From Escherichia coli (lineage in GTDB: Bacteria; Pseudomonadota; Gammaproteobacteria; Enterobacterales; Enterobacteriaceae), in assembly GCF_003019035.1 (NCBI RefSeq), contig NZ_CP027448.1: a stretch of 64,000 nucleotides of DNA. One strand, given 5' to 3'. Shown here piece after piece: positions 32,624 to 50,270 of this stretch. The stretch's first letter is position 1. Each line of letters starts with the position of its first letter. Under the pieces are notes generated by a model. The model had not been told where the DNA came from. It ran no database searches and saw nothing but the letters and a program-made list of their open reading frames with translations. The position numbers and the translations under genes are program-made.

Positions 32624-32708
32624 ATAGCTGAATTGTTGGCTATACGGTTTTTAGATGGCCCCGGTAATCTTTCATGTCGCCAAACTTGAAGAAGATTATC
32701 GGGGTTTT
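32624..32708 (+). ncRNA. copA: CopA antisense RNA (copy-number control), approximate ends
   Basis: Antisense to the repA1 leader upstream of tap; ends in a 14-bp stem (CCCCGGUAAUCUUU...GAAGAUUAUCGGGG) plus UUUU. Confidence 0.55.
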
Positions 32709-32838
32709 CACTTTTCTGGCTCCTGTAAATCCACATCAGAACCGGTTCCCTGCCACCTTATGGCGTGGCCAGCCACAAAATTCCTTAAACGATCAGCAAT
32801 CTATCACTCACGCCTGAGATAAGCAATAATGTGAATAT

Positions 32839-33096
32839 TCACATTATTGCTCTGCGTTTCAGCTCTGATTCAATCAGTTTTTCAAGCATCTGCGCCTGGG
32901 TAATACCTTCCTCATCTGCCAGTTCACTCAGCCTGTCTTTTAAACGGGCCTGGATAACCGCATGAAAAGCCTTATGAGTGTTGCTTCTGCGAGCCAGAGA
33001 AGCCCTTTGCCTCTCTCTGGCCGGAACAGGGTTACCTTTCCGGTATGCACGCTTGTTACCTGATGAGGAAGTCACTGCATTTTCTGTCTGCGACAT
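32839..33096 (-). CDS. copB: CopB (RepA2) repressor of the repA1 promoter
   Basis: 85-aa protein MSQTENAV... matching R100 RepA2 in sequence and position. Confidence 0.85.
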
Positions 33097-33263
33097 CTCG
33101 CCTCCTCAATACTTAAACAGGGATCATTTCGCAGAGGATACTACAGTTTTTTGAAATCAGCGACTTGAGAATTGTGACAAAGATCTGTGTTGGCGCACAA
33201 ATCAACGGGGATTACTGTCGTTTAATGTGATTTAAACTGTGAAATAGTATGGTTTTCAGTTAT

Positions 33264-33339
33264 GGAAACGCCGGGAGCGGAGAAAACTTGCTTTTTCCCG
33301 TTTCCGGGGTTGGACAACTGAGCAACGCGAAGGCGTCAG
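33264..33339. repeat. Conserved ~75-bp hairpin-containing element, copy 1
   Basis: GGAAACGCCGGG...hairpin...TTTCCGGGGTTGGACAACTGAGCAACGCGAAGGCGTCAG; second copy at 46086-46158. Confidence 0.7.
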
Positions 33340-33926
33340 CTACGATGTTCAGGTGGCTGCTGATCAGCCCCTGTTGTATTCAGCCATTCGCCGGTCATCT
33401 GCAGCAGTTTTCTGGCATCGTGGCTTCTGAGCAACGGTATACCAGCCTGCCTCATAACCTCTTCCAGAAGAATATCCCGGCGTCTGCGTTCCGGTCGTAA
33501 ATGGCTGGCATCATCCAGCTCTACTGCTGCAACAATACTGAACGAACGCCGCTCAACGATAACCACATCAACATGCCACTGGGACACCATCCTGAATAAC
33601 TGCCACCACTGACGTGATCGTGGCCGGATATTCCCGTTCAGCTGGACGATATCAGCGCCCCGTACCTGCGGGCACAGATACCACCGCTTCATATCCACAA
33701 TCCTGAACAACCCTTTCATGAAACTGACCTCTCTTTCTGTCAGCAACGTTTTCTGACGCTGCCAGTATTCACCGCTGACCAGTATTCGCTCAGCTTCACT
33801 GGGGCGTATGCCTGCTGCATGTAACCGTATCAGTGCGGGAGGACAGTTTTTACTCCTCCGGAATATTATCCGGACAGACAAAACAGCTATAATAATAACG
33901 ACTACAATGAAAATAATTAAATTCAT
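33336..33926 (-). CDS. DUF2726-like membrane-anchored protein (putative nuclease fold)
   Basis: N-terminal TM (MNLIIFIVVVIIIAVLSV) then a domain with blocks ...FRIVDMKRWYLCPQV... and ...HVDVVIVERRSFSIVAAVELDD... that I recall as DUF2726-like. Confidence 0.55.
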   Translation of the reverse strand: MNLIIFIVVVIIIAVLSVRIIFRRSKNCPPALIRLHAAGIRPSEAERILVSGEYWQRQKTLLTEREVSFMKGLFRIVDMKRWYLCPQVRGADIVQLNGNIRPRSRQWWQLFRMVSQWHVDVVIVERRSFSIVAAVELDDASHLRPERRRRDILLEEVMRQAGIPLLRSHDARKLLQMTGEWLNTTGADQQPPEHRS

Positions 33927-34077
33927 TATTATGTCCTTAATTACATATGAGTCCAGATGAACGAATGTAGTTTTCACCCGAAGTAAGACTCGCAATATTT
34001 ATCCCATGAATTACCTGAACGTTATCAGAAATACGACAAACCAGATCCGCAACAGATAATTCTGTTGTGATAAGGGG

Positions 34078-34704
34078 TCACCGCCTCGTTAACCAGACAA
34101 TTTTATCAGCCTGGATTTTAATTACCCCACGACGAACCAACTCACTACGTATACTAACAGCCCGTTCTTTATGCCATTCTCCTCGCATATGCGATTTTAA
34201 ATAATTATTAAACCCCTCCACTGACACCGGTAAATTCCGCACATCACTTCCGGATGCCTGCTGCATTCTGTTAGCCCACCGGATAATAACATCCCCCTCA
34301 GGGACAATCAGGTGAGATACCGGCAAATGACTCTCAGCGTGCTCTGGCGCAATACGTTCGCAACGAAAACCCCGTTTTTGCAGAGTATGAATTATTCCAT
34401 CATAGCCTTTATCGTTTGAAATAATATGCCAGGTGTTGTTTCCGGCACTGCAGCACGTCATCCTGCCGAGCTCCATAACAAGGTGAAAGTCAACATTATT
34501 CTTCGAAATGTTATCTATCTGTCTGATACTCACTCTGATATTATCTGGCCAGGTATCAGCAGGTAAGACCACTGTTTGCTGAAGAGGACCAGCAAATAAA
34601 ATCAAATCGGTATAATCAGCAAGCGATATATTTCTCAGATTGCAACAGTTTTCATAATCAATGAGCGCAATGCGTAATGCTTCATTTCTCATCATGTTTT
34701 CCAT
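34078..34704 (-). CDS. NYN/PIN-like domain protein (putative RNase fold)
   Basis: N-terminal ...RIALIDYENC... and later ...WHIISNDKGYDGIIH... match the acidic-residue arrangement of NYN-type domains; the ORF may start further upstream (track: 34740). Confidence 0.45.
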   Translation of the reverse strand: MENMMRNEALRIALIDYENCCNLRNISLADYTDLILFAGPLQQTVVLPADTWPDNIRVSIRQIDNISKNNVDFHLVMELGRMTCCSAGNNTWHIISNDKGYDGIIHTLQKRGFRCERIAPEHAESHLPVSHLIVPEGDVIIRWANRMQQASGSDVRNLPVSVEGFNNYLKSHMRGEWHKERAVSIRSELVRRGVIKIQADKIVWLTRR

Positions 34705-34997
34705 TATATATTCACCATAATAAAACAGAATAAACTGCAAACCCGACGCAGTGTATCTACCGGTCTGGTTAAGTTTTCATTATCGGAATATAAAATATTG
34801 TCTGCCGCCAGTCAGGCAGCCCGGAGTTCCGTGAGTGATATAACAAATCAATAAACCACCACTTAATTCATAAACATCCTTGTGTCACTATAAGCCGGTC
34901 GGTTATCCGGTGCGCCATGAGTAATCCGTTCTGAAGAACGGAAATACAGAGTGCCAGGTTGTCTCTCATAATACAAAAGCAAATTTCATGCATCATT

Positions 34998-35035
34998 CAG
35001 CCTCCTTACCCTGGAGAAACGGAGGCTGTTTTTTT
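34998..35035 (+). terminator. Rho-independent terminator (plus strand)
   Basis: CAGCCUCC-loop-GGAGGCUG followed by UUUUUUU. Confidence 0.55.
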
Positions 35036-35428
35036 ATATTCCTGAAACACCATCCGCAATGATTCATCGCTGGTGAGTTTTATGAATTTAATCTCAAATA
35101 TGCCAGCCTCTTTATTTATTCCTTCCGTCCATATTTCCGGCATCGTTCTGCGCGTAGCCGGGCAAATCGTCGCCAGTCCGCCCGGGGAGCAATTCCGGCG
35201 GCCTGACACCACGCCTCAGCAGCCTCCATCCAGAATCCACGGATTTCCAGATTAACAGCCCTGTGTCCGGTACGCTGCCAGCGCCAGACCTGGCCGTTTC
35301 GTGAACTGTTTCTGAATCCATTCATTTTCCTGTCCCCCTTTAGTTGTCAGTATTATTGTGATAAATAATTCAGTGGACTAGTTTTCTTTCGGGTACGGAA
35401 GTTATTTCCTTTTAAGCCTTATTTCCCT

Positions 35429-35456
35429 GCCTCCTCTCTCTGAGGGAGGCTTTTTT
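35429..35456 (+). terminator. Rho-independent terminator (plus strand), abutting the finO stop
   Basis: GCCUCC-ucucucugag-GGAGGC followed by UUUUUU; the U-tract exists only on the plus strand. Confidence 0.5.
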
Positions 35457-36016
35457 CATTTCTCATCAAGCACGGCCTGAAGTTCTGCCTTTATCCGGTT
35501 CTGGCGGCGGATTTTATCCAGACGCGTTGCCGCATACGCTTCCTCCTCCTGAGAAATATGCTCCGTCACATACCCTTCCGTGTCATACCGGCAGGCACCG
35601 GCTTTCATGGCACACAGATAGCTTTCTGAACGGGTGATGGCCTTCAGCGCCCTGCGCAGTTTTTTATGCGAGAGTGGGATATTCCGCTGCGCCACGTCTT
35701 CCATTAACACGTCCCGGATACCACAGGCCAGAAGCCGGGGTGTGTCACCGTCAAACAATCCCGGCCACCAGGGCTTCAGGGTGTTCACGGCCTCATCCAG
35801 CGTGGGCAGGTTCAGATAAATGGACAGCGCCTGTCTGGCCTGCGCTTTTTTTGCCGCCAGCTCCGCTTCCCGGGCTGCTTTCTCGGCCAGCTTCTGCTTT
35901 TTCACCTTCCATTTTGGTGGCGTGGTGACATTGATGATGGTTTTCCGGCTGCGGACAGGCGTCTCTCCTTCCGTTTTCCGCTTCAGTGTCAGTACAGGTC
36001 GTTTTTGCTCTGCCAT
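35456..36016 (-). CDS. finO: FinO fertility-inhibition RNA chaperone
   Basis: [52 protein letters not shown]... matches F/R100 FinO; located after traX as in F. Confidence 0.9.
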
Positions 36017-36118
36017 GCTTACTCTGACCTTCGTGAAAATATGCCCTGCAGGCCGTTGAAACAACTCATCGTAACAGGAAGTTAATTTCAACGACCTTTA
36101 ACGTATAAATACTGACAA

Positions 36119-36978
36119 TTAAAGATATTGTTTAAACCATTGTGTCTGCACAGCTACTACACGTTCAAAAAACGCGCCCTCATAAATATCATAATGGCAT
36201 GCATCAGCTTCCTCGTATAATTCCTTAGTACCAGAAGCAACAGCATCATATAATGCTCTTCCCTGTTCCGGTGGATTAACGCTATCCTGGCCGGCAATAA
36301 CAACCAAAACTGGGCACTGGACGCTGGCTGCACTCTCTGCCGGTTTATATTGCAACGTTTCCATGACCGTAAGGAAAGGTATTTTTATATCCATTTCGGG
36401 ATGCCGGGCTTTGATTTTCTCGAAGAATACCTTCGATTCATTATCACTTAGTACCCGTGTAACCCCCACAAACATCTCTTTCCCGGTGTTTTTCTTCTTC
36501 TCTGCCATTTTATTCAGCGTGGATAGAAAAGACGCTCTCTCCGATTCATTCATCTCTCCGGTAACCAGAACATCACCGTCAGCAAAAGCCAGCTGGCTGA
36601 CAATACATTTTACGCGTTGGTCCTGCGCAGCTGCACTGAAGACATGCCCCCTCCCAGCGATGTTCCCCATAACCCAATACGCTGATTATCAATACATTCC
36701 TGCTTTTCTGCCCAATTGATAACTGAAATAATATCTTCGGTCTGCATTGCAGGAACCAGACGCCCTCGTTCTCCATCACTCTCACCGAATCCTCGATAAT
36801 CAAAAGTAATCGTTGCGAATCCTGCTTCTGTGAAGGCATTCGCAAAGCAAGGGAGCAGAACATTCCTGATACCGCAAAACCCATGGCATAAGATAATCAA
36901 CGGATGTTTTATATTTCCTTCAGGAACACGAAATGTCAGGGCAATACCTTCAGAGAGTTTGTGATCCGTAATTTTCAT
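36119..36978 (-). pseudogene. Alpha/beta-hydrolase-fold protein, frameshifted
   Basis: Two overlapping ORFs (36610-36978 and 36119-36670) together form one hydrolase; nucleophile-elbow-like GLWGTSLGG. Confidence 0.6.
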
Positions 36979-37036
36979 AAATATCCTGTGTTATGTTGTT
37001 TATTAATAATCAGAATCAGCGTCAGTATCATACCAG

Positions 37037-37783
37037 TCACAACGCCAGAATGCCCAGCACAGCCAGATGACAGGCATAGAACGTCGGGAAAAAATCCCCG
37101 GGCCAGAAACGGGGTAATGATTTCCCTGCACACGACACCAGACCAACGGTCAGCACCGTCATCACAAGACCAGCTACAGCCGCCACATCACTGATAGTAA
37201 GGTTAAGAGCAGGAATAACAGCCAGCAGGCATGTAACCAGAACCAGACTCTCCGCTCTGTATTCCGCCCGGTATACCCGGTAGCTGGCCGCTAACATCAA
37301 CACCCCGACAATACCGTAACTGGTACCGGACAAAGGCAGCCATACTGCCAGAAGCGACATAGTCCCTGCGGAACGCCACAGGCTGCGCGTTTCACACCAT
37401 GTCAGCACCTGTGCCGCAACGGCAAAGGCAAACAGGATATTCCCCTCATACCAGGGAAAGCCGGCCAGATAATATGCGAACTGGGCAATCACTGCCCATC
37501 CCCACAACCGGTTAATGGCCTCCTGCCGGATATGCGTATGACGGGACAGATTCAGCCCCCACACCAGGGCAAAAAGCGGAAAGGCTCCTCGACCGGCCAG
37601 AAACATCCACGTCTTGTCCAGATGCAGAATGCGGTTTGCATGGTCCAGTACCATCAGCACCAGTGCCACCGTTTTGATGATATCCCGCTGTCCGGGTGAC
37701 CAGACCAGCAACGACTGCAACCAGGTATCGGTCCGGGCAGCCAGTGAATCGTTACGTGTCGTGTTCGTGTTATCCGTTGTCAT
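37037..37783 (-). CDS. traX: TraX (F-pilin acetylase)
   Basis: Polytopic membrane protein directly downstream of traI, as in F; start taken at MTTDNTNTT. Confidence 0.85.
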   Translation of the reverse strand: MTTDNTNTTRNDSLAARTDTWLQSLLVWSPGQRDIIKTVALVLMVLDHANRILHLDKTWMFLAGRGAFPLFALVWGLNLSRHTHIRQEAINRLWGWAVIAQFAYYLAGFPWYEGNILFAFAVAAQVLTWCETRSLWRSAGTMSLLAVWLPLSGTSYGIVGVLMLAASYRVYRAEYRAESLVLVTCLLAVIPALNLTISDVAAVAGLVMTVLTVGLVSCAGKSLPRFWPGDFFPTFYACHLAVLGILAL

Positions 37784-47448: not shown

Positions 47449-50270
47449 AATGGCCCCTTCAGTCGTTCCTTTTTACCATCAATCATTTTTTTCACAGCCT
47501 CTCCTGATGGCTCAGGTATTATCTTTTGACTTTCTCGCTCTTCATTATATTTATTATTCTGAGATAATGCTTCTGTTTTATGGTGATTCTGCAGTTCAGA
47601 ATACTGTCCTCTTACAATATTTTCCTCGCCATGTATGCTGTTCTGAGTATCACCTATATTCCCTTTATATTCTGTGACCATATTATCAACCTGATGTTTT
47701 ACATCATTACGGATATTACTGTCCTGTGTTCTTTGATCAATAATGGCCTGATGCCCCTGATGGTCAGCAATAATATTCTGGCTGCCACCACCCGAAGGTA
47801 CGCTCTCCATTCCTTTACCAATATCGCCACGGGATTCACGCCAGGCATTATCAACACCAGGTTGTACCTGTTCTTGCACAAAAGACCATGCCATCGCCCG
47901 ACGGCGTTCTGCAATCTCCGGTGAACTGGTGTTTGTCAGAATAGCTTCTGCATACTGCGGCGCGTGTTTCATCACATACTGTGCAAACTGTTGCGACAGG
48001 TCTTCACTCATCTGCCCACTCATGCTTTCAGTACGGGATGCCATTTCAGCATATTCATGGCTGCGGGTCATATTCGTCGTGTACTGGTCGTAACTCTGTT
48101 TCGCTGAGTTCAGGGCTGCAGACAACTGGTCCACGCGGGAATCGGCATTATTGTCAGTATGGCTTCCGGATTCACTGACTTTGCGACTGGTAAAGTAATC
48201 GCTGGCCTCTTTAAAGTCCTTACTGGCTCTAGCGTCAATATCATGGCGAGCATCATGGGAAGCCCTGCTGCCACTACTGGCTTCATGTGAGTCCAGATCA
48301 CTACCGTCAATACTGGCTCGCCCACCAACCTTAGCGCCAACATCAACACGCACACCAAAAAGGCTGGGCTTTGCATCTAATCCGGCATGAGCATCACCAT
48401 ACAATCCAGCTGATGCAGTCGTACTTCTCGATGCCAGTTCTCTTGTCGCCTGCTCATTACTGATATTATGCGCCTTCGCATAGCTTTCCACTGCACTGCG
48501 CATACGGCTGGCCATCATGGAGTCCTGAGCACTCATCGTGCTGTCAGCACCACCGGTGACAGAATCACTGCTCCCCCGGTTAGAACCAAACTGACTGAGC
48601 GTGTTCCAGGCACTGGCAATACTGCTGCTGAACCCATGCAGGGCACTTTCTGCTCTGTTCGATGCTTCCCGGGCCATTTCCTGTTGTGCCGCCGCAATCT
48701 GACGCGTTGCATTGATGCCGACCGGTAACCGGGACATCGCTCCGCTTGCATCCATCACCATATTACCATCACGGGTCTGTGTGGCGGTTGCGCCACTGCC
48801 GGTCTGGTACATCATCTGACCAAACGACGTGGTGCTGTTGGTGCTCCAGCTGAAGCCGTTCACGTTCTCCGTCTGCATGTTGCCGTAGGAGTAATTACCG
48901 TCAACCACACTGCCTGCTGCACTGGCGGTCGGGCTGATAGCAGAGGAAGCGAAATGGCTGTACACACTGGAAAATCCTGCCCCGAGCCCCCTGACCATCA
49001 TCCAGGATAATGGCGGGATCATCATGGAAAGATACCCGGCAGTGGAAGCCAGATCGGAGTATTTCAGCTGTATCTGTGAAATTTCCGAGAGCACCACCGG
49101 TGCACCATTCTGCTTCGCATAAAATGTCATGGCGCTGTTCAGAATGGCGTACAACATTGGCCATGACTGCAACCACATCAGGGCAAACACATAGCCTTTC
49201 AGGACGGACAGCGTCAGTTTGTTGAAGACAGCCGCCAGTACCAGGAGCGGGAAAATACCGATGGCGATCCCCGTCAGGATGGTCTGCGTCATGGGCAGTG
49301 TCCGCATCGCCACATGACCGATGGAGACATGTGCCAGACGTTGCTTCTCCATCGATGATGTGGTGGCCAGATTCACCAGGCTGGCCGAATCACCATTACG
49401 TGCGGCATAACTGGTGATCCCCTCCTTCAGCGCATTGATGGTGACATTCTGGCGGATGATCTGGCTGGCTGATTTACTTGAGCCATAGAAGTAACTGTAA
49501 CTGTCGCCAATCAGCGTACTGAACAACAGGTTCGGATCAGGGCGTCCACCAAATAGCTGCTGGGCATAATAATGCCATGTTTTTCCGCCACTCTGTGTGT
49601 CCAGATTCAGCTTGTCTTTCAGCGAAACCGACGCGTCCTTACAGGTCACGAAATTATTATTGCTGTCATAAACGCCCCGCAGCGGACTGGGGCGGGAAAA
49701 AATCAGCGTGTAAGGATCAGCGGAGGCCATCAGTTCCTCCAGCGTGTATTTGTGGTTCAGGTAAATATCCCCCATCACGCAGTTCTGCACATAATCCTGG
49801 AAAAGATTGGCGATTTCCGGATTACGGGACAAAAAGTCGGTGCTTTTTGATACCAGTTCTGCGCCAAACAGCATCCCCGTTTTGCTGTAGGTGACACTGT
49901 CCGGTTGCGTGAAGATCATCTCGTAACTGGCCACCATTGCATGCCCGATACGGGTCGTCAGTGAAAGTGGCATCGCCAGTCCGACCGGCACATTATCCAC
50001 CCGGTGAATTTTGACCAGGTCACTGTTATCAATAATCTGCACCGATGTGCGGACATTAACCAGCAGGCTGATAAGCACAAACACGGCCACCCAGCCCAGC
50101 AAATCCATCACGTTGTGCCGCTGTACCCACATTACGGCCACCGCTAGAACAGACAATGTGAGCGCAATTTTTTCAATGGAATCCCACGTCCGGGTCCCCA
50201 TAAAGGCGGCAATGGCATTCAGGTTATTCCGCAACCACTCACCACCGGCAATCACATAAACTTCATTCAC
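47445..50270 (-). CDS. traG: TraG (pilus assembly / mating-pair stabilisation)
   Basis: 941-aa polytopic protein of F TraG size, between traH and traS. Confidence 0.9.
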   Translation of the reverse strand: MNEVYVIAGGEWLRNNLNAIAAFMGTRTWDSIEKIALTLSVLAVAVMWVQRHNVMDLLGWVAVFVLISLLVNVRTSVQIIDNSDLVKIHRVDNVPVGLAMPLSLTTRIGHAMVASYEMIFTQPDSVTYSKTGMLFGAELVSKSTDFLSRNPEIANLFQDYVQNCVMGDIYLNHKYTLEELMASADPYTLIFSRPSPLRGVYDSNNNFVTCKDASVSLKDKLNLDTQSGGKTWHYYAQQLFGGRPDPNLLFSTLIGDSYSYFYGSSKSASQIIRQNVTINALKEGITSYAARNGDSASLVNLATTSSMEKQRLAHVSIGHVAMRTLPMTQTILTGIAIGIFPLLVLAAVFNKLTLSVLKGYVFALMWLQSWPMLYAILNSAMTFYAKQNGAPVVLSEISQIQLKYSDLASTAGYLSMMIPPLSWMMVRGLGAGFSSVYSHFASSAISPTASAAGSVVDGNYSYGNMQTENVNGFSWSTNSTTSFGQMMYQTGSGATATQTRDGNMVMDASGAMSRLPVGINATRQIAAAQQEMAREASNRAESALHGFSSSIASAWNTLSQFGSNRGSSDSVTGGADSTMSAQDSMMASRMRSAVESYAKAHNISNEQATRELASRSTTASAGLYGDAHAGLDAKPSLFGVRVDVGAKVGGRASIDGSDLDSHEASSGSRASHDARHDIDARASKDFKEASDYFTSRKVSESGSHTDNNADSRVDQLSAALNSAKQSYDQYTTNMTRSHEYAEMASRTESMSGQMSEDLSQQFAQYVMKHAPQYAEAILTNTSSPEIAERRRAMAWSFVQEQVQPGVDNAWRESRGDIGKGMESVPSGGGSQNIIADHQGHQAIIDQRTQDSNIRNDVKHQVDNMVTEYKGNIGDTQNSIHGEENIVRGQYSELQNHHKTEALSQNNKYNEERESQKIIPEPSGEAVKKMIDGKKERLKGPL

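Follow-up and report, generated by a model that had tools for sequence, protein, structure and literature searches.

The window analysed here, a stretch of 64,000 nucleotides from Escherichia coli, contains an interval bounded by finO and by an NYN/PIN7-domain gene, both on the minus strand. The call of finO was matched by the PGAP annotation of the 99.8%-identical plasmid NZ_CP062205.1. The NYN gene is cargo, and the same slot is occupied in other plasmids by thermonuclease-hha or by srnB. The features located in the interval and at its borders, in gene direction, were as follows.

35456..36016, minus strand: finO (fertility inhibition protein), 186 aa (Pfam FinO_N 1.8e-38, ProQ 6.8e-27)
35456-35458, minus strand: finO stop codon TGA
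35429-35456, plus strand: hairpin 2, GCCTCCTCTCTCTGAGGGAGGC followed by TTTTTT, found by the terminator scan
35116..35325, minus strand: ANR-family (AraC negative regulator-like) gene, 69 aa, with the Shine-Dalgarno sequence GGGGGA at 35332-35337
35036..35115: lineage-specific insert between the ANR stop codon and hairpin 1, absent from R100-type plasmids
35006-35143, minus strand: 45-aa ORF WP_001114218.1, annotated in some RefSeq records
34998-35035, plus strand: hairpin 1, CAGCCTCC-15 nt-GGAGGCTG followed by T7
34975..35035, plus strand: hairpin-1 block, with the conserved 5' flank AAAAGCAAAT(T/C)TCATGCATCATT
34959..35216, plus strand: sub-threshold match to Rfam RF02876 AS-pc02 ('antisense to pHK01_099'), 27.2 bits against a gathering score of 40
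34868..34996, minus strand: 42-aa ORF from ATGATG behind hairpin 1, not a conserved gene
34925..34942: perfect 7-bp palindrome TCCGTTC-TGAA-GAACGGA (-10.3 kcal/mol, z = -3.2)
34830..34866, minus strand: probable promoter/regulatory region of the downstream gene, ATTAAGT and then a CRP-like TGTTA-TATCAC-TCACG (34845-34830)
34078..34704, minus strand: NYN/PIN7-domain gene (Pfam PIN7 5.1e-17; start codon per PGAP)

An earlier sequence-only reading of the interval had described it as ORF-poor, with about 700 bp lacking a convincing protein gene; the conserved and annotated 69-aa ANR-family gene on the minus strand was missed in that description. Since 35116-35325 is a gene, the non-coding DNA is reduced to 34705-35115 (411 bp) and 35326-35455 (130 bp). 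Analysis of the 69-aa product revealed a real, diverged member of the ANR family, encoded directly downstream of finO. The protein is labelled 'hypothetical protein' by PGAP (WP_001297500.1), and it matched the NCBIfam model NF033650 (ANR_neg_reg) at E 2e-5 with 24.3 bits, below the curated cutoff of 32. The same model was matched by all 29 aligned relatives at E <= 0.01 (best 2.4e-10). The protein was 56% identical (E 3e-23) to the R100 protein named 'ANR family transcriptional regulator' by PGAP. Its relatives are encoded in at least 5000 plasmid records, where the gene always follows finO, and its dN/dS was 0.16-0.43 against seven alleles. A 60-aa ORF on the plus strand (35073-35255) and an alternative minus-strand frame (35112-35321) were rejected, as neither had a family match; the family signal and the dN/dS below 1 belong to the frame at 35116-35325.

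ANR proteins are small, three-helix proteins, and the characterised members bind AraC/XylS activators and H-NS. The AlphaFold2 model of the 69-aa protein (pLDDT 85.2) consisted of three helices at model residues 4-28, 31-44 and 48-67, where Met1 is absent and one must be added for protein numbering. PDB sequence searches and Foldseek searches with this model returned only generic helical folds and TPR/MIT-like ones, none of them at E < 0.3 by fold. The family has been delimited by small size (<10 kDa) and three alpha-helices and carries the signature residues A10, E14, A22, W26, A29, W43 and R47 (PMC4983702); the 69-aa protein has this size and this number of helices. By-eye comparison with the published signature (PMC4983702) revealed the exact spacing A-x3-E-x7-A-x3-W-x2-A at A23, E27, A35, W39 and A42, and W51 and R56 were also present, with the arginine at +5 instead of +4 from the tryptophan and a loop about 5 residues shorter. 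The likeness to the ANR family (Aar of enteroaggregative E. coli, Rnr, NF033650) therefore comprises size, three predicted helices and the first five signature residues, whereas the score below the curated cutoff, the shorter loop before the third-helix tryptophan and the other W..R..C spacing set the window allele apart from the curated and published members. Unlike the ANR genes of virulence regulons, this one belongs to the conjugative-plasmid backbone beside finO, the R100 copy lying beside hha as well. No AraC-family (AraC/XylS) gene adjoins it in the annotated neighbourhoods of the window's relative and of R100.

The sequence-only reading had suggested that the interval could be a candidate small RNA locus or a remnant of a type I toxin-antitoxin system. 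A degraded or sRNA-only locus of the hok/sok (srnB-like) type would suit the neighbourhood, which is shared with srnB/srnC of F and hok/sok of R1: the expectation that srnB occurs here in some F-like plasmids was correct, as srnB/Hok genes lie downstream of the ANR gene in sister plasmids, between it and the RepFII region. There, srnB replaces the NYN cassette; it is not present in the window in degraded form. The 42-aa ORF, which follows a hairpin occluding its Shine-Dalgarno sequence and is faced by a plus-strand terminator, also superficially resembles a toxin mRNA with its antisense RNA. However, the 42-aa frame is a private allele of the window. Base 34966, T in the window, is A in 5/5 close relatives checked, giving MMHEICFCIM* (10 aa), and the frame has 7 codons in R100; because every close relative checked stops at codon 11, the ORF was rejected as a toxin or a gene. 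Its peptide is not a hydrophobic transmembrane one, and no Pfam or NCBIfam match was obtained for the gap ORFs, this one included. When Hok (R1), SrnB (F) and two plasmid Hok proteins were searched by tblastn (word size 2, composition correction off) in all frames of the whole window, the best E value was 0.2 in 64 kb and 2.4-4.7 in the interval, the latter being chance level, so that the earlier failure to find a Hok-like peptide could be confirmed. A covariance search using Rfam, as had been proposed for Sok-like RNAs, gave no Sok, hok or other toxin-antitoxin RNA family at E <= 10 in 33000-37500 or 34700-35500, and none at gathering score in the whole window, where CopA (32624-32713, 2.3 kb from the candidate plus-strand RNA) and AS-traG were the only results besides the sub-threshold AS-pc02. 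Finally, blastn (word size 7) with the srnB flanks of relatives L005 and L012 matched only the hairpin-1 block and DUF2726/rep-proximal DNA at 33171-33619. Thus, unlike hok/sok, the window holds no Hok-family ORF, mok frame, Sok-like RNA or DNA likeness to srnB loci, and an addiction remnant is extremely unlikely. The interval is a conserved segment 3' of finO in F-like plasmids, not a toxin-antitoxin remnant.

The gap between the ANR gene and the NYN gene was analysed by comparison with related plasmids. Among the carriers of this variant are the plasmids NC_009786.1 of ETEC E24377A and NC_014232.1 of ETEC 1392/75, each with 98.5% identity to the window over 34600-35600. The insert at 35036..35115 gave matches to loci of the same lineage only, and the segment 34986-35194 was invariant among the four relatives compared. 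The 45-aa ORF occurs in 171 records, 160 of them at >=99% identity, and was set aside as an unsupported ab initio call without a diverged homologue, family match or Shine-Dalgarno sequence. The palindrome that had been noted near 34925 is indeed present. The DNA around it is lineage-specific; in gene direction it comes 45-60 nt after hairpin 1, and it carries zero substitutions among the four relatives compared. Other lineages carry a different hairpin at that site: TCCGGTCG..TGACCGGA in R100, and in L016 CTGGTCAG..CTGACCAG followed by CGTTTTT, a canonical terminator in gene direction (minus strand). Two further minus-strand hairpins, at 34819-34802 and 34752-34734, are probably due to chance, because their stems are broken in the close relative L009. 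The segment 34830..34866 was read as the probable promoter and CRP-like site of the downstream gene; the homologous segment of R100 has ATTAAGT and then a perfect TGTGA-TTAATT-TCACA, with a weak alignment to the window. Footprinting of the gap against those upstream of NYN homologues (L004, L051) revealed no similarity beyond hairpin 1. We infer that 34705-34967 is lineage-specific leader/promoter DNA of the NYN cassette, without a conserved element.

These comparisons also bear on whether 34705-34967 could harbour a small RNA gene, new and restricted to this lineage, that has a plus-strand promoter of its own and is terminated at hairpin 1. Room for such a gene would be given by the roughly 260 bp without annotation that precede this plus-strand, terminator-like hairpin, and a weak promoter candidate, TTAAGT-16-TAAAAT, could be seen by eye near 34770-34797. 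Against it, the promoter scan gave no plus-strand site in the gap, the gap sequence occurs only within a single lineage of plasmids (some 155 among 5426 complete E. coli genomes), and the NYN homologues, 53-57% identical, each follow an unrelated upstream gap. Moreover, the gap gathers substitutions faster than its surroundings, holding 11 of the 25 differences from L010. We regard a gene of this kind as very unlikely.

The sequence-only reading had reported two clean plus-strand terminators, and both hairpins could be found. Terminator-like sites were abundant in 33500-37000 (13, compared with 3.1 +/- 1.7 in shuffles), and the stem core GCCTCC..GGAGGC occurred at only two places in 64 kb, namely hairpins 1 and 2, where 0.06 would be expected. 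Hairpin 2 consists of a GC-rich stem-loop (35429-35450) and a T6 run (35451-35456) that abuts the finO stop codon. Its fold was -14.3 kcal/mol (z = -2.5), and with 7 pairs, 5 of them G-C, before the T6 run, it has the form of an intrinsic terminator on the plus strand. An A-rich run followed by a hairpin, as seen on the coding strand, was present at 96 of 97 finO 3' ends (31 distinct sequences), the hairpin being gone from a single contig; the T-rich run after it is on the plus strand, and none of the 97 ends had a T-run on the finO coding strand. The stems are unrelated between two finO lineages (GCCTCC.. versus GCCCTCTGT..), whose FinO proteins are about 84-90% identical to that of the window. 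The U-G pair at 35435 becomes C-G in close relatives, and in some variants a U-G closing pair is valid on the minus strand instead.

Hairpin 1 has an 8-bp stem, CAGCCTCC/GGAGGCTG, formed by 34998-35005 with 35021-35028 and including 6 G-C pairs, a 15-nt loop that contains CCTGGAG, and a T7 run at 35029-35035. It was less clean than had been described, because its 15-nt loop lies outside the terminator criteria of the scan, which allowed loops of 3-8 nt. Its fold on the plus strand was -13.9 kcal/mol (z = -1.56; 12 of 200 shuffles were as stable). Across variants the loop is 15-17 nt long. The block occurs in three genomic contexts with different flanks in each, and the plus-strand T-run is kept in all variants and all three contexts; in R100-type plasmids, hairpin 1 abuts the ANR stop codon. 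All 111 copies examined lie 3' of an opposite-strand ANR gene. Among 22 distinct variants, 97.7% of cells were paired, and the hairpin was independently predicted as a consensus structure by RNAalifold. Covariation was confined to one pair, the 5' arm having been preset by the search pattern: pair 7 is U-A in 15 variants, C-G in 4 and U-G in 2. The U-G variant, found in at least 10 contigs, forms a proper pair on the plus strand only, and the common L008-type variant is a C-A mismatch on the minus strand. As an indicator of the functional strand, G-U pairs were not decisive, since they argue for the plus strand in hairpin 1 and for the minus strand in some variants of hairpin 2. A further gene-proximal hairpin of the same polarity was observed in L008/L013/L016-type plasmids, where the ANR stop codon is followed by CCCCCGG..CCGGGGG with an A-run upstream. 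Taken together, the two hairpins are conserved far beyond the plasmid lineage of the window, each 3' of a minus-strand gene and each with its T-run on the plus strand only.

Such conservation could reflect shared descent, because all copies come from related plasmids. The hairpins might then be fortuitous or merely inherited without function, and the AS-pc02 signal would be noise of pervasive transcription. The modest fold z-scores (-1.6 to -2.6) and the single covarying pair of hairpin 1 are in keeping with this explanation. Yet hairpin 2 is kept with completely different stems in two finO lineages, the hairpin-1 block survives in three contexts with everything around it replaced, and the gene ends examined all share one polarity, while neighbouring hairpins of the gap decay within 2-3% divergence. 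Absence of function therefore appears quite improbable to us.

It was then considered which strand the hairpins serve. Viewed on the minus strand, the 3' arm of hairpin 1 is a Shine-Dalgarno sequence, AAGGAGG, 7 nt before an ATG, and GGAGG or GAAGG is found in that arm 7 nt ahead of the conserved ATGCATGAG in all three contexts. A sense-strand role is pointed to because a conserved, optimally spaced SD-ATG is sequestered in the minus-strand fold, which is slightly more stable than the plus-strand one (-16.4 versus -13.9 kcal/mol). The hairpins may thus act on the minus-strand mRNAs as exonuclease barriers for the finO and ANR 3' ends, with hairpin 1 being in addition a translational switch: it would hide the Shine-Dalgarno sequence of a short leader ORF whose translation, as a process and not through its peptide, affects read-through or Rho termination before the cargo promoter. 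Both hairpins lie immediately 3' of minus-strand stop codons, and a second hairpin follows 45-60 nt on in every lineage, a canonical minus-strand terminator in L016, as this explanation would suggest. On the other hand, a minus-strand U-tract after either hairpin is absent in all lineages, whereas the plus-strand T-run is kept despite differing flanks, and the L008-type variant of hairpin 1 would give the C-A mismatch on the minus strand. The leader mini-ORF itself is conserved only in its start, SD-N7-ATGCATGAG: it reads MHEICFF* in R100, an 18-aa ORF in L003 and MHETLFLMCLVRLADQRF* in L016, and ranges from 7 to 42 codons without a conserved peptide, its ATG or frame being lost in L005 and L015. 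A role on the sense mRNAs is unlikely, though it retains appreciable weight.

We lean towards an arrangement in which antisense transcripts of the plus strand would run across the 3' end of the ANR gene without reaching finO, with the conserved hairpins as their intrinsic terminators; this is, by a modest measure, the probable explanation. Such transcripts would probably start in the AT-rich DNA that holds the promoter of the downstream cargo gene and end at hairpin 1, with any read-through ending at hairpin 2, so that the ANR mRNA would be covered in its 3' UTR and at its 3' end. This overlap may allow the ANR mRNA to be modulated by cis-antisense in its stability or its translation, as GadY/gadX and IesR-1/PSLT047 exemplify, and the terminators would keep the antisense transcripts out of finO and the tra operon. 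The loop of 15-17 nt in hairpin 1 is unusual for an efficient intrinsic terminator, and the fold of hairpin 1 is unexceptional, with a slightly stabler minus-strand fold; both observations speak against a terminator at that site. With an ANR-type gene and two conserved, apparently antisense-facing terminators as its content, the interval is largely ordinary, and the finO-ANR interval is not a new kind of system. In the 3'-overlapping cis-antisense pairs GadY/gadX of E. coli and IesR-1/PSLT047 of Salmonella pSLT (PMC3815029), as would be the case for the putative pair in the window, a convergent RNA overlaps the 3' UTR or 3' end of an mRNA, with terminator hairpins in the overlap. IesR-1, however, is located at another place on its plasmid and is unrelated in sequence.

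The suggestion of a candidate small RNA received partial support from the plus-strand match to AS-pc02 and from the plus-strand T-runs kept across diverged lineages, although the match, at 27.2 bits, was below threshold. The antisense RNA AS-pc02 takes its name from the IncFII plasmid pHK01 and reportedly goes back to Jiang and colleagues in 2017. It was the only Rfam match in the interval (E <= 10; 33000-37500 and 34700-35500), with E values of 7e-4 and 1.3e-4 in the window; the alignment, which runs over the full length of the model with a 92-nt insertion, takes in hairpin 1 and, in antisense, the last 100 nt of the ANR gene. The syntenic sequence of R100 scored 229.5 bits and is a full member of the family. 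The window match has the same strand and synteny as AS-pc02, being antisense to the small ANR-family gene behind finO, a layout also seen in R100, and its homology covers model positions 1-73 (hairpin-1 block) and 90-185 (antisense of the ANR 3' end). It differs in the insertion, in a replaced ANR 3' end and in its score below 40, and the Rfam consensus helices are mostly unformed; the element actually conserved is the 8-bp hairpin 1, which is absent from the Rfam model. The hairpin-1 region is a diverged counterpart of the AS-pc02 locus.

With regard to expression, two STEC strains have been assayed by RT-qPCR, and an AS-pc02 amplicon of R100-type sequence was detected in vesicle RNA from one of them (PMC12370729). 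Literature citing the AS-pc02 work gave no detail on AS-pc02, the published FinO RIP-seq and pBIC1a transcriptome gave nothing on RNAs adjoining finO, and a literature search on finO transcripts ('orf286') found nothing. In the search for a conserved plus-strand sigma-70 promoter upstream of hairpin 1, only R100 was scan-positive; its site, TTGTGA-16-TAAAAT, precedes the end of the hairpin-1 T-run by about 125 nt. L016 and the window gap gave none, and the one candidate of the window, TGGAGA-17-TATATT (35012-35040), is situated on the downstream side of hairpin 1. The Rfam model of AS-pc02 continues about 105 nt past hairpin 1, and therefore hairpin 1 cannot be an efficient AS-pc02 terminator in pHK01, unless the RNA-seq boundaries are imprecise.

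In a speculative extension of the antisense reading, one that we find rather unlikely, ANR and hairpin 1 would together form a complete unit of antisense control and would move with cargo cassettes in F-like plasmids. What Rfam lists as 'AS-pc02' would then have as its real core a plus-strand RNA of roughly 80-125 nt, transcribed in the divergent direction from the region that holds the cargo gene's promoter and CRP site. Through its terminator stem-loop, this RNA would form a kissing contact with the SD-sequestering hairpin in the ANR 3' UTR, much as FinP/traJ or CopA/tap do, which might set translation of the mini-ORF and hence finO-ANR read-through into the cargo genes. Genes from finO to the replicon would tend to carry an antisense-facing terminator, and these terminators could shield both the tra operon and the region that controls replication from transcription converging on them. 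A duplication of ANR and hairpin 1 around an NYN gene was observed in some contigs. As in FinP/traJ and CopA/CopT-tap, the terminator stem-loop of the candidate plus-strand RNA exactly complements the RBS stem-loop of the leader ORF; in contrast to both systems, there is no sequence or Rfam similarity, the resemblance being one of layout only, and the mini-ORF is uncoupled from the downstream gene, 190-290 nt away. In Salmonella, the two major ligands obtained in FinO pull-downs were FinP and RepX (PMC8136791).

The main result of this analysis is an annotation correction: a region that seemed empty and could be mistaken for an addiction remnant holds a widespread small regulator gene. Thousands of IncF resistance and virulence plasmids carry the ANR homologue in their backbone, where it lies beside finO and, in R100-type plasmids, beside hha too. 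Should this homologue, like Aar, bind H-NS or activators of the AraC type, it would represent a regulatory link from the plasmid to its host. The consistent antisense polarity of the hairpins, together with the link to the AS-pc02 locus, provides a concrete hypothesis, namely that antisense transcription may take place at the finO-distal end of the tra region.

The sequence belongs to an F-like (IncF) conjugative plasmid, and all genes around the interval 34741-35456 lie on the minus strand in the following order:

traI and traX, minus strand, first in the gene order
36119-36978, minus strand, alpha/beta hydrolase gene
35456-36016, minus strand, finO
35116-35325, minus strand, 69-aa ORF
34078-34704, minus strand, NYN/PIN7 gene
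DUF2726 gene, minus strand
32624-32713, plus strand, CopA RNA in the RepFII control region, which follows the DUF2726 gene (Rfam gathering-level match, 97.8 bits)

The annotation of NZ_CP062205.1, which is 99.8% identical over 34600-35600, matches this arrangement. The hydrolase is broken into the overlapping ORFs 36119-36670 and 36610-36978 because of a 1-bp deletion in a C-run near 36647 (C6 versus C7 in the otherwise identical NZ_CP062205.1), which may be a sequencing error in the homopolymer or may mark a frameshift pseudogene; one RefSeq record names the protein a UilS family quorum-quenching N-acyl-homoserine lactonase. A further gathering-level Rfam match was AS-traG (49466-49551, plus strand, 62.1 bits), which according to its family description is a traG antisense RNA; AS-traG and CopA, the RepFII copy-number RNA, share the strand of the hairpin T-runs.

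The sequence-only reading described about 700 bp without a convincing protein gene, which overlooked the 69-aa ORF at 35116-35325 (minus strand), preceded by the Shine-Dalgarno sequence GGGGGA and labelled by PGAP as hypothetical protein WP_001297500.1. The NCBIfam model NF033650 (ANR family transcriptional regulator; ANR, AraC negative regulator) matched the protein with an E-value of 2e-5, and the "hypothetical" label is explained by its score of 24.3 bits, below the 32-bit cutoff. The closest named relative was the R100 protein, named ANR by PGAP (56% identity, E 3e-23). No fewer than 5000 plasmid records contain a relative, the allele classes ranging in identity from 50% to 100%, and 29 of 29 aligned relatives matched the ANR model. 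The dN/dS values over seven alleles were 0.16–0.43. The AlphaFold2 model revealed three helices (pLDDT 85), a hallmark of ANR proteins (PMC4983702). The signature spacing A-x3-E-x7-A-x3-W-x2-A was found, whereas the third-helix spacing differed from that of the family; PDB sequence and Foldseek searches found no related solved structure. Taken together, the family match, the R100 relative, the spread, the dN/dS and the predicted fold identify the ORF, on sequence and modelling grounds, as a real, diverged ANR-family gene.

The ANR sequence is GC-rich, with long open frames on both strands (35073-35255, plus; 35112-35321, minus), and in at least one GenBank record (CP048869.1; 1534-1716 of locus L007) the antisense ORF is annotated in place of the ANR gene. 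Some RefSeq records carry a 45-aa "hypothetical protein", WP_001114218.1, at 35006-35143 (minus strand), whose frame extends over the 3' end of ANR and over half of the hairpin at 34998-35035. It was confined to the plasmid lineage of the window (171 records, 160 at ≥99% identity), lacked a Shine-Dalgarno sequence and is probably an ab initio artefact.

Two plus-strand hairpins, hairpin 1 (34998-35028 + T7) and hairpin 2 (35429-35450 + T6, abutting the finO stop), and the palindrome at 34925-34942 were present as the sequence-only reading had it. The terminator scan detected hairpin 2; over 33500-37000 it counted 13 terminator-like sites, where shuffled sequence gave 3.1 ± 1.7. Hairpin 1, with an 8-bp stem, was not listed because of its 15-nt loop, and it folded with ordinary stability (-13.9 kcal/mol, z = -1.56). 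Both hairpins have the stem core GCCTCC/GGAGGC, which has no other occurrence in the 64 kb (0.06 expected). In R100 the two cores differ (CAGCCTTC versus GCCTCCTT); the identical 6-bp core in the window's lineage is due to a compensatory T-to-C and A-to-G change in hairpin 1, and the identity may be a coincidence.

The two hairpins were the only non-coding elements conserved beyond the window's lineage. The comparison covered 97 finO 3' ends, taken from loci of plasmids and metagenomes; in 96 the finO stop was followed by an A-rich run and a GC-rich hairpin, the hairpin being lost in one contig. Hairpin 2 occurred in 31 distinct versions, including a wholly different stem in one finO lineage (GCCCTCTGT-ATG-ACAGAGGGC), and no copy had a coding-strand T-run after it. 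The hairpin-1 block, roughly 60 nt long (TCATGCATYATT, then CAGCCTYC, a loop with CCTGGAG, GRAGGCTG, T4-7), was found in three contexts, with an ANR gene on the opposite strand just beyond it in 111/111 copies. The ANR stop abuts the block in the R100 type and lies about 95 nt away in the window and about 490 nt away in the type of loci L008 and L016, which has a further hairpin of the same polarity at the ANR stop. The RNAalifold consensus structure was the 8-bp stem of hairpin 1. Pair counts gave 97.7% of cells as paired; covariation was limited to one pair (U-A in 15, U-G in 2, C-G in 4), the 5' arm having been fixed beforehand by the search pattern. The U-G form, common in metagenomes, is a valid pair on the plus strand only. 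Other hairpins of the gap were broken even among relatives 2–3% divergent. Of 5426 complete E. coli genomes, only about 155 had the gap sequence 34705-34967, which showed no similarity to the gaps upstream of NYN homologues of 53–57% identity.

The expectation of hok/srnB-type loci in this neighbourhood was correct, as a Hok-family (srnB) gene lies downstream of the ANR gene in some F-like plasmids; other cargo at this position is thermonuclease-hha (R100) or a PIN/NYN gene. The suggested type I toxin-antitoxin remnant left no trace in the window: Rfam revealed no Sok or hok RNA in the interval or the whole window, tblastn over the window no Hok-like peptide, and comparison with srnB flanks no DNA similarity except in the hairpin-1 block and in DNA lying outside the interval. 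The interval holds no toxin-antitoxin remnant. A tempting 42-aa ORF behind hairpin 1 (34868-34996) was private to the window: five close relatives have A at base 34966 and with it a stop at codon 11, and the R100 counterpart has seven codons.

A CRP-like site, TGTTA-TATCAC-TCACG (34830-34845, minus strand), lies upstream of the cargo gene that follows the ANR module, and a perfect one, TGTGA-TTAATT-TCACA, in R100 (approximately 3423-3438 of its locus), with a conserved ATTAAGT about 17–19 nt upstream in four contexts. From this sequence pattern, the nuclease-hha or NYN cassette may be under catabolite control. Some metagenome contigs (L051, 9733-11826; also L080 and L096) carry two ANR plus hairpin-1 modules 1.83 kb apart around an NYN/PIN gene, in the order finO, ANR, hairpin 1, NYN, ANR, hairpin 1, nuclease, hha, DUF2726, suggesting recombination at the module as the way in which cargo cassettes are exchanged. 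A further hairpin near the NYN 3' end of these contigs, CAGCCCCC..GGGGGCTG + T5, has its T-run antisense to the genes.

The sole Rfam signal in the interval was RF02876, AS-pc02 (34959-35216, plus strand), at 27.2 bits versus a gathering score of 40. Rfam describes this RNA as "antisense to pHK01_099"; its consensus matches 3276 plasmid records, and the syntenic R100 site, antisense to the R100 ANR gene, scored 229.5 bits. The window carries, by sequence homology, a diverged counterpart of the AS-pc02 locus, differing by a 92-nt insertion and a replaced ANR 3' end. Most Rfam consensus helices are unformed in the window, but hairpin 1 is conserved in both. Of two STEC strains, one has been reported to yield an AS-pc02 RT-qPCR amplicon from vesicle RNA (PMC12370729).

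We infer that the hairpins act as terminators for plus-strand antisense RNAs, with hairpin 1 as the first stop and hairpin 2 as a backstop at the finO border. Such transcripts would overlap the 3' UTR and 3' end of ANR, an arrangement likened to GadY/gadX and IesR-1/PSLT047 (PMC3815029 for the latter), and would be kept from entering finO and tra in antisense. The long loop and the Rfam AS-pc02 model, which runs through hairpin 1, count against termination there, and no conserved plus-strand promoter was found, the scan matching in R100 only (TTGTGA-16-TAAAAT). The main rival is that hairpin 1 acts on the sense (minus) strand, where it is slightly more stable and where its 3' arm reads as a Shine-Dalgarno sequence, followed at 7 nt by a conserved ATGCATGAG. 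In this rival's favour, every lineage also has a second hairpin 45–60 nt after hairpin 1, namely the palindrome in the window and, in L016, a terminator of canonical form in the gene direction. Against it, the mini-ORF after the Shine-Dalgarno sequence is conserved in neither length nor peptide, and some variants have lost it. Speculatively, antisense termination and sense-strand action could be compatible, as in FinP/traJ.

The interval is largely ordinary, comprising a diverged small regulator of a known family, a sub-threshold AS-pc02 homologue and conserved antisense-facing putative terminators; its testable part is how the ANR plus hairpin-1 module functions.
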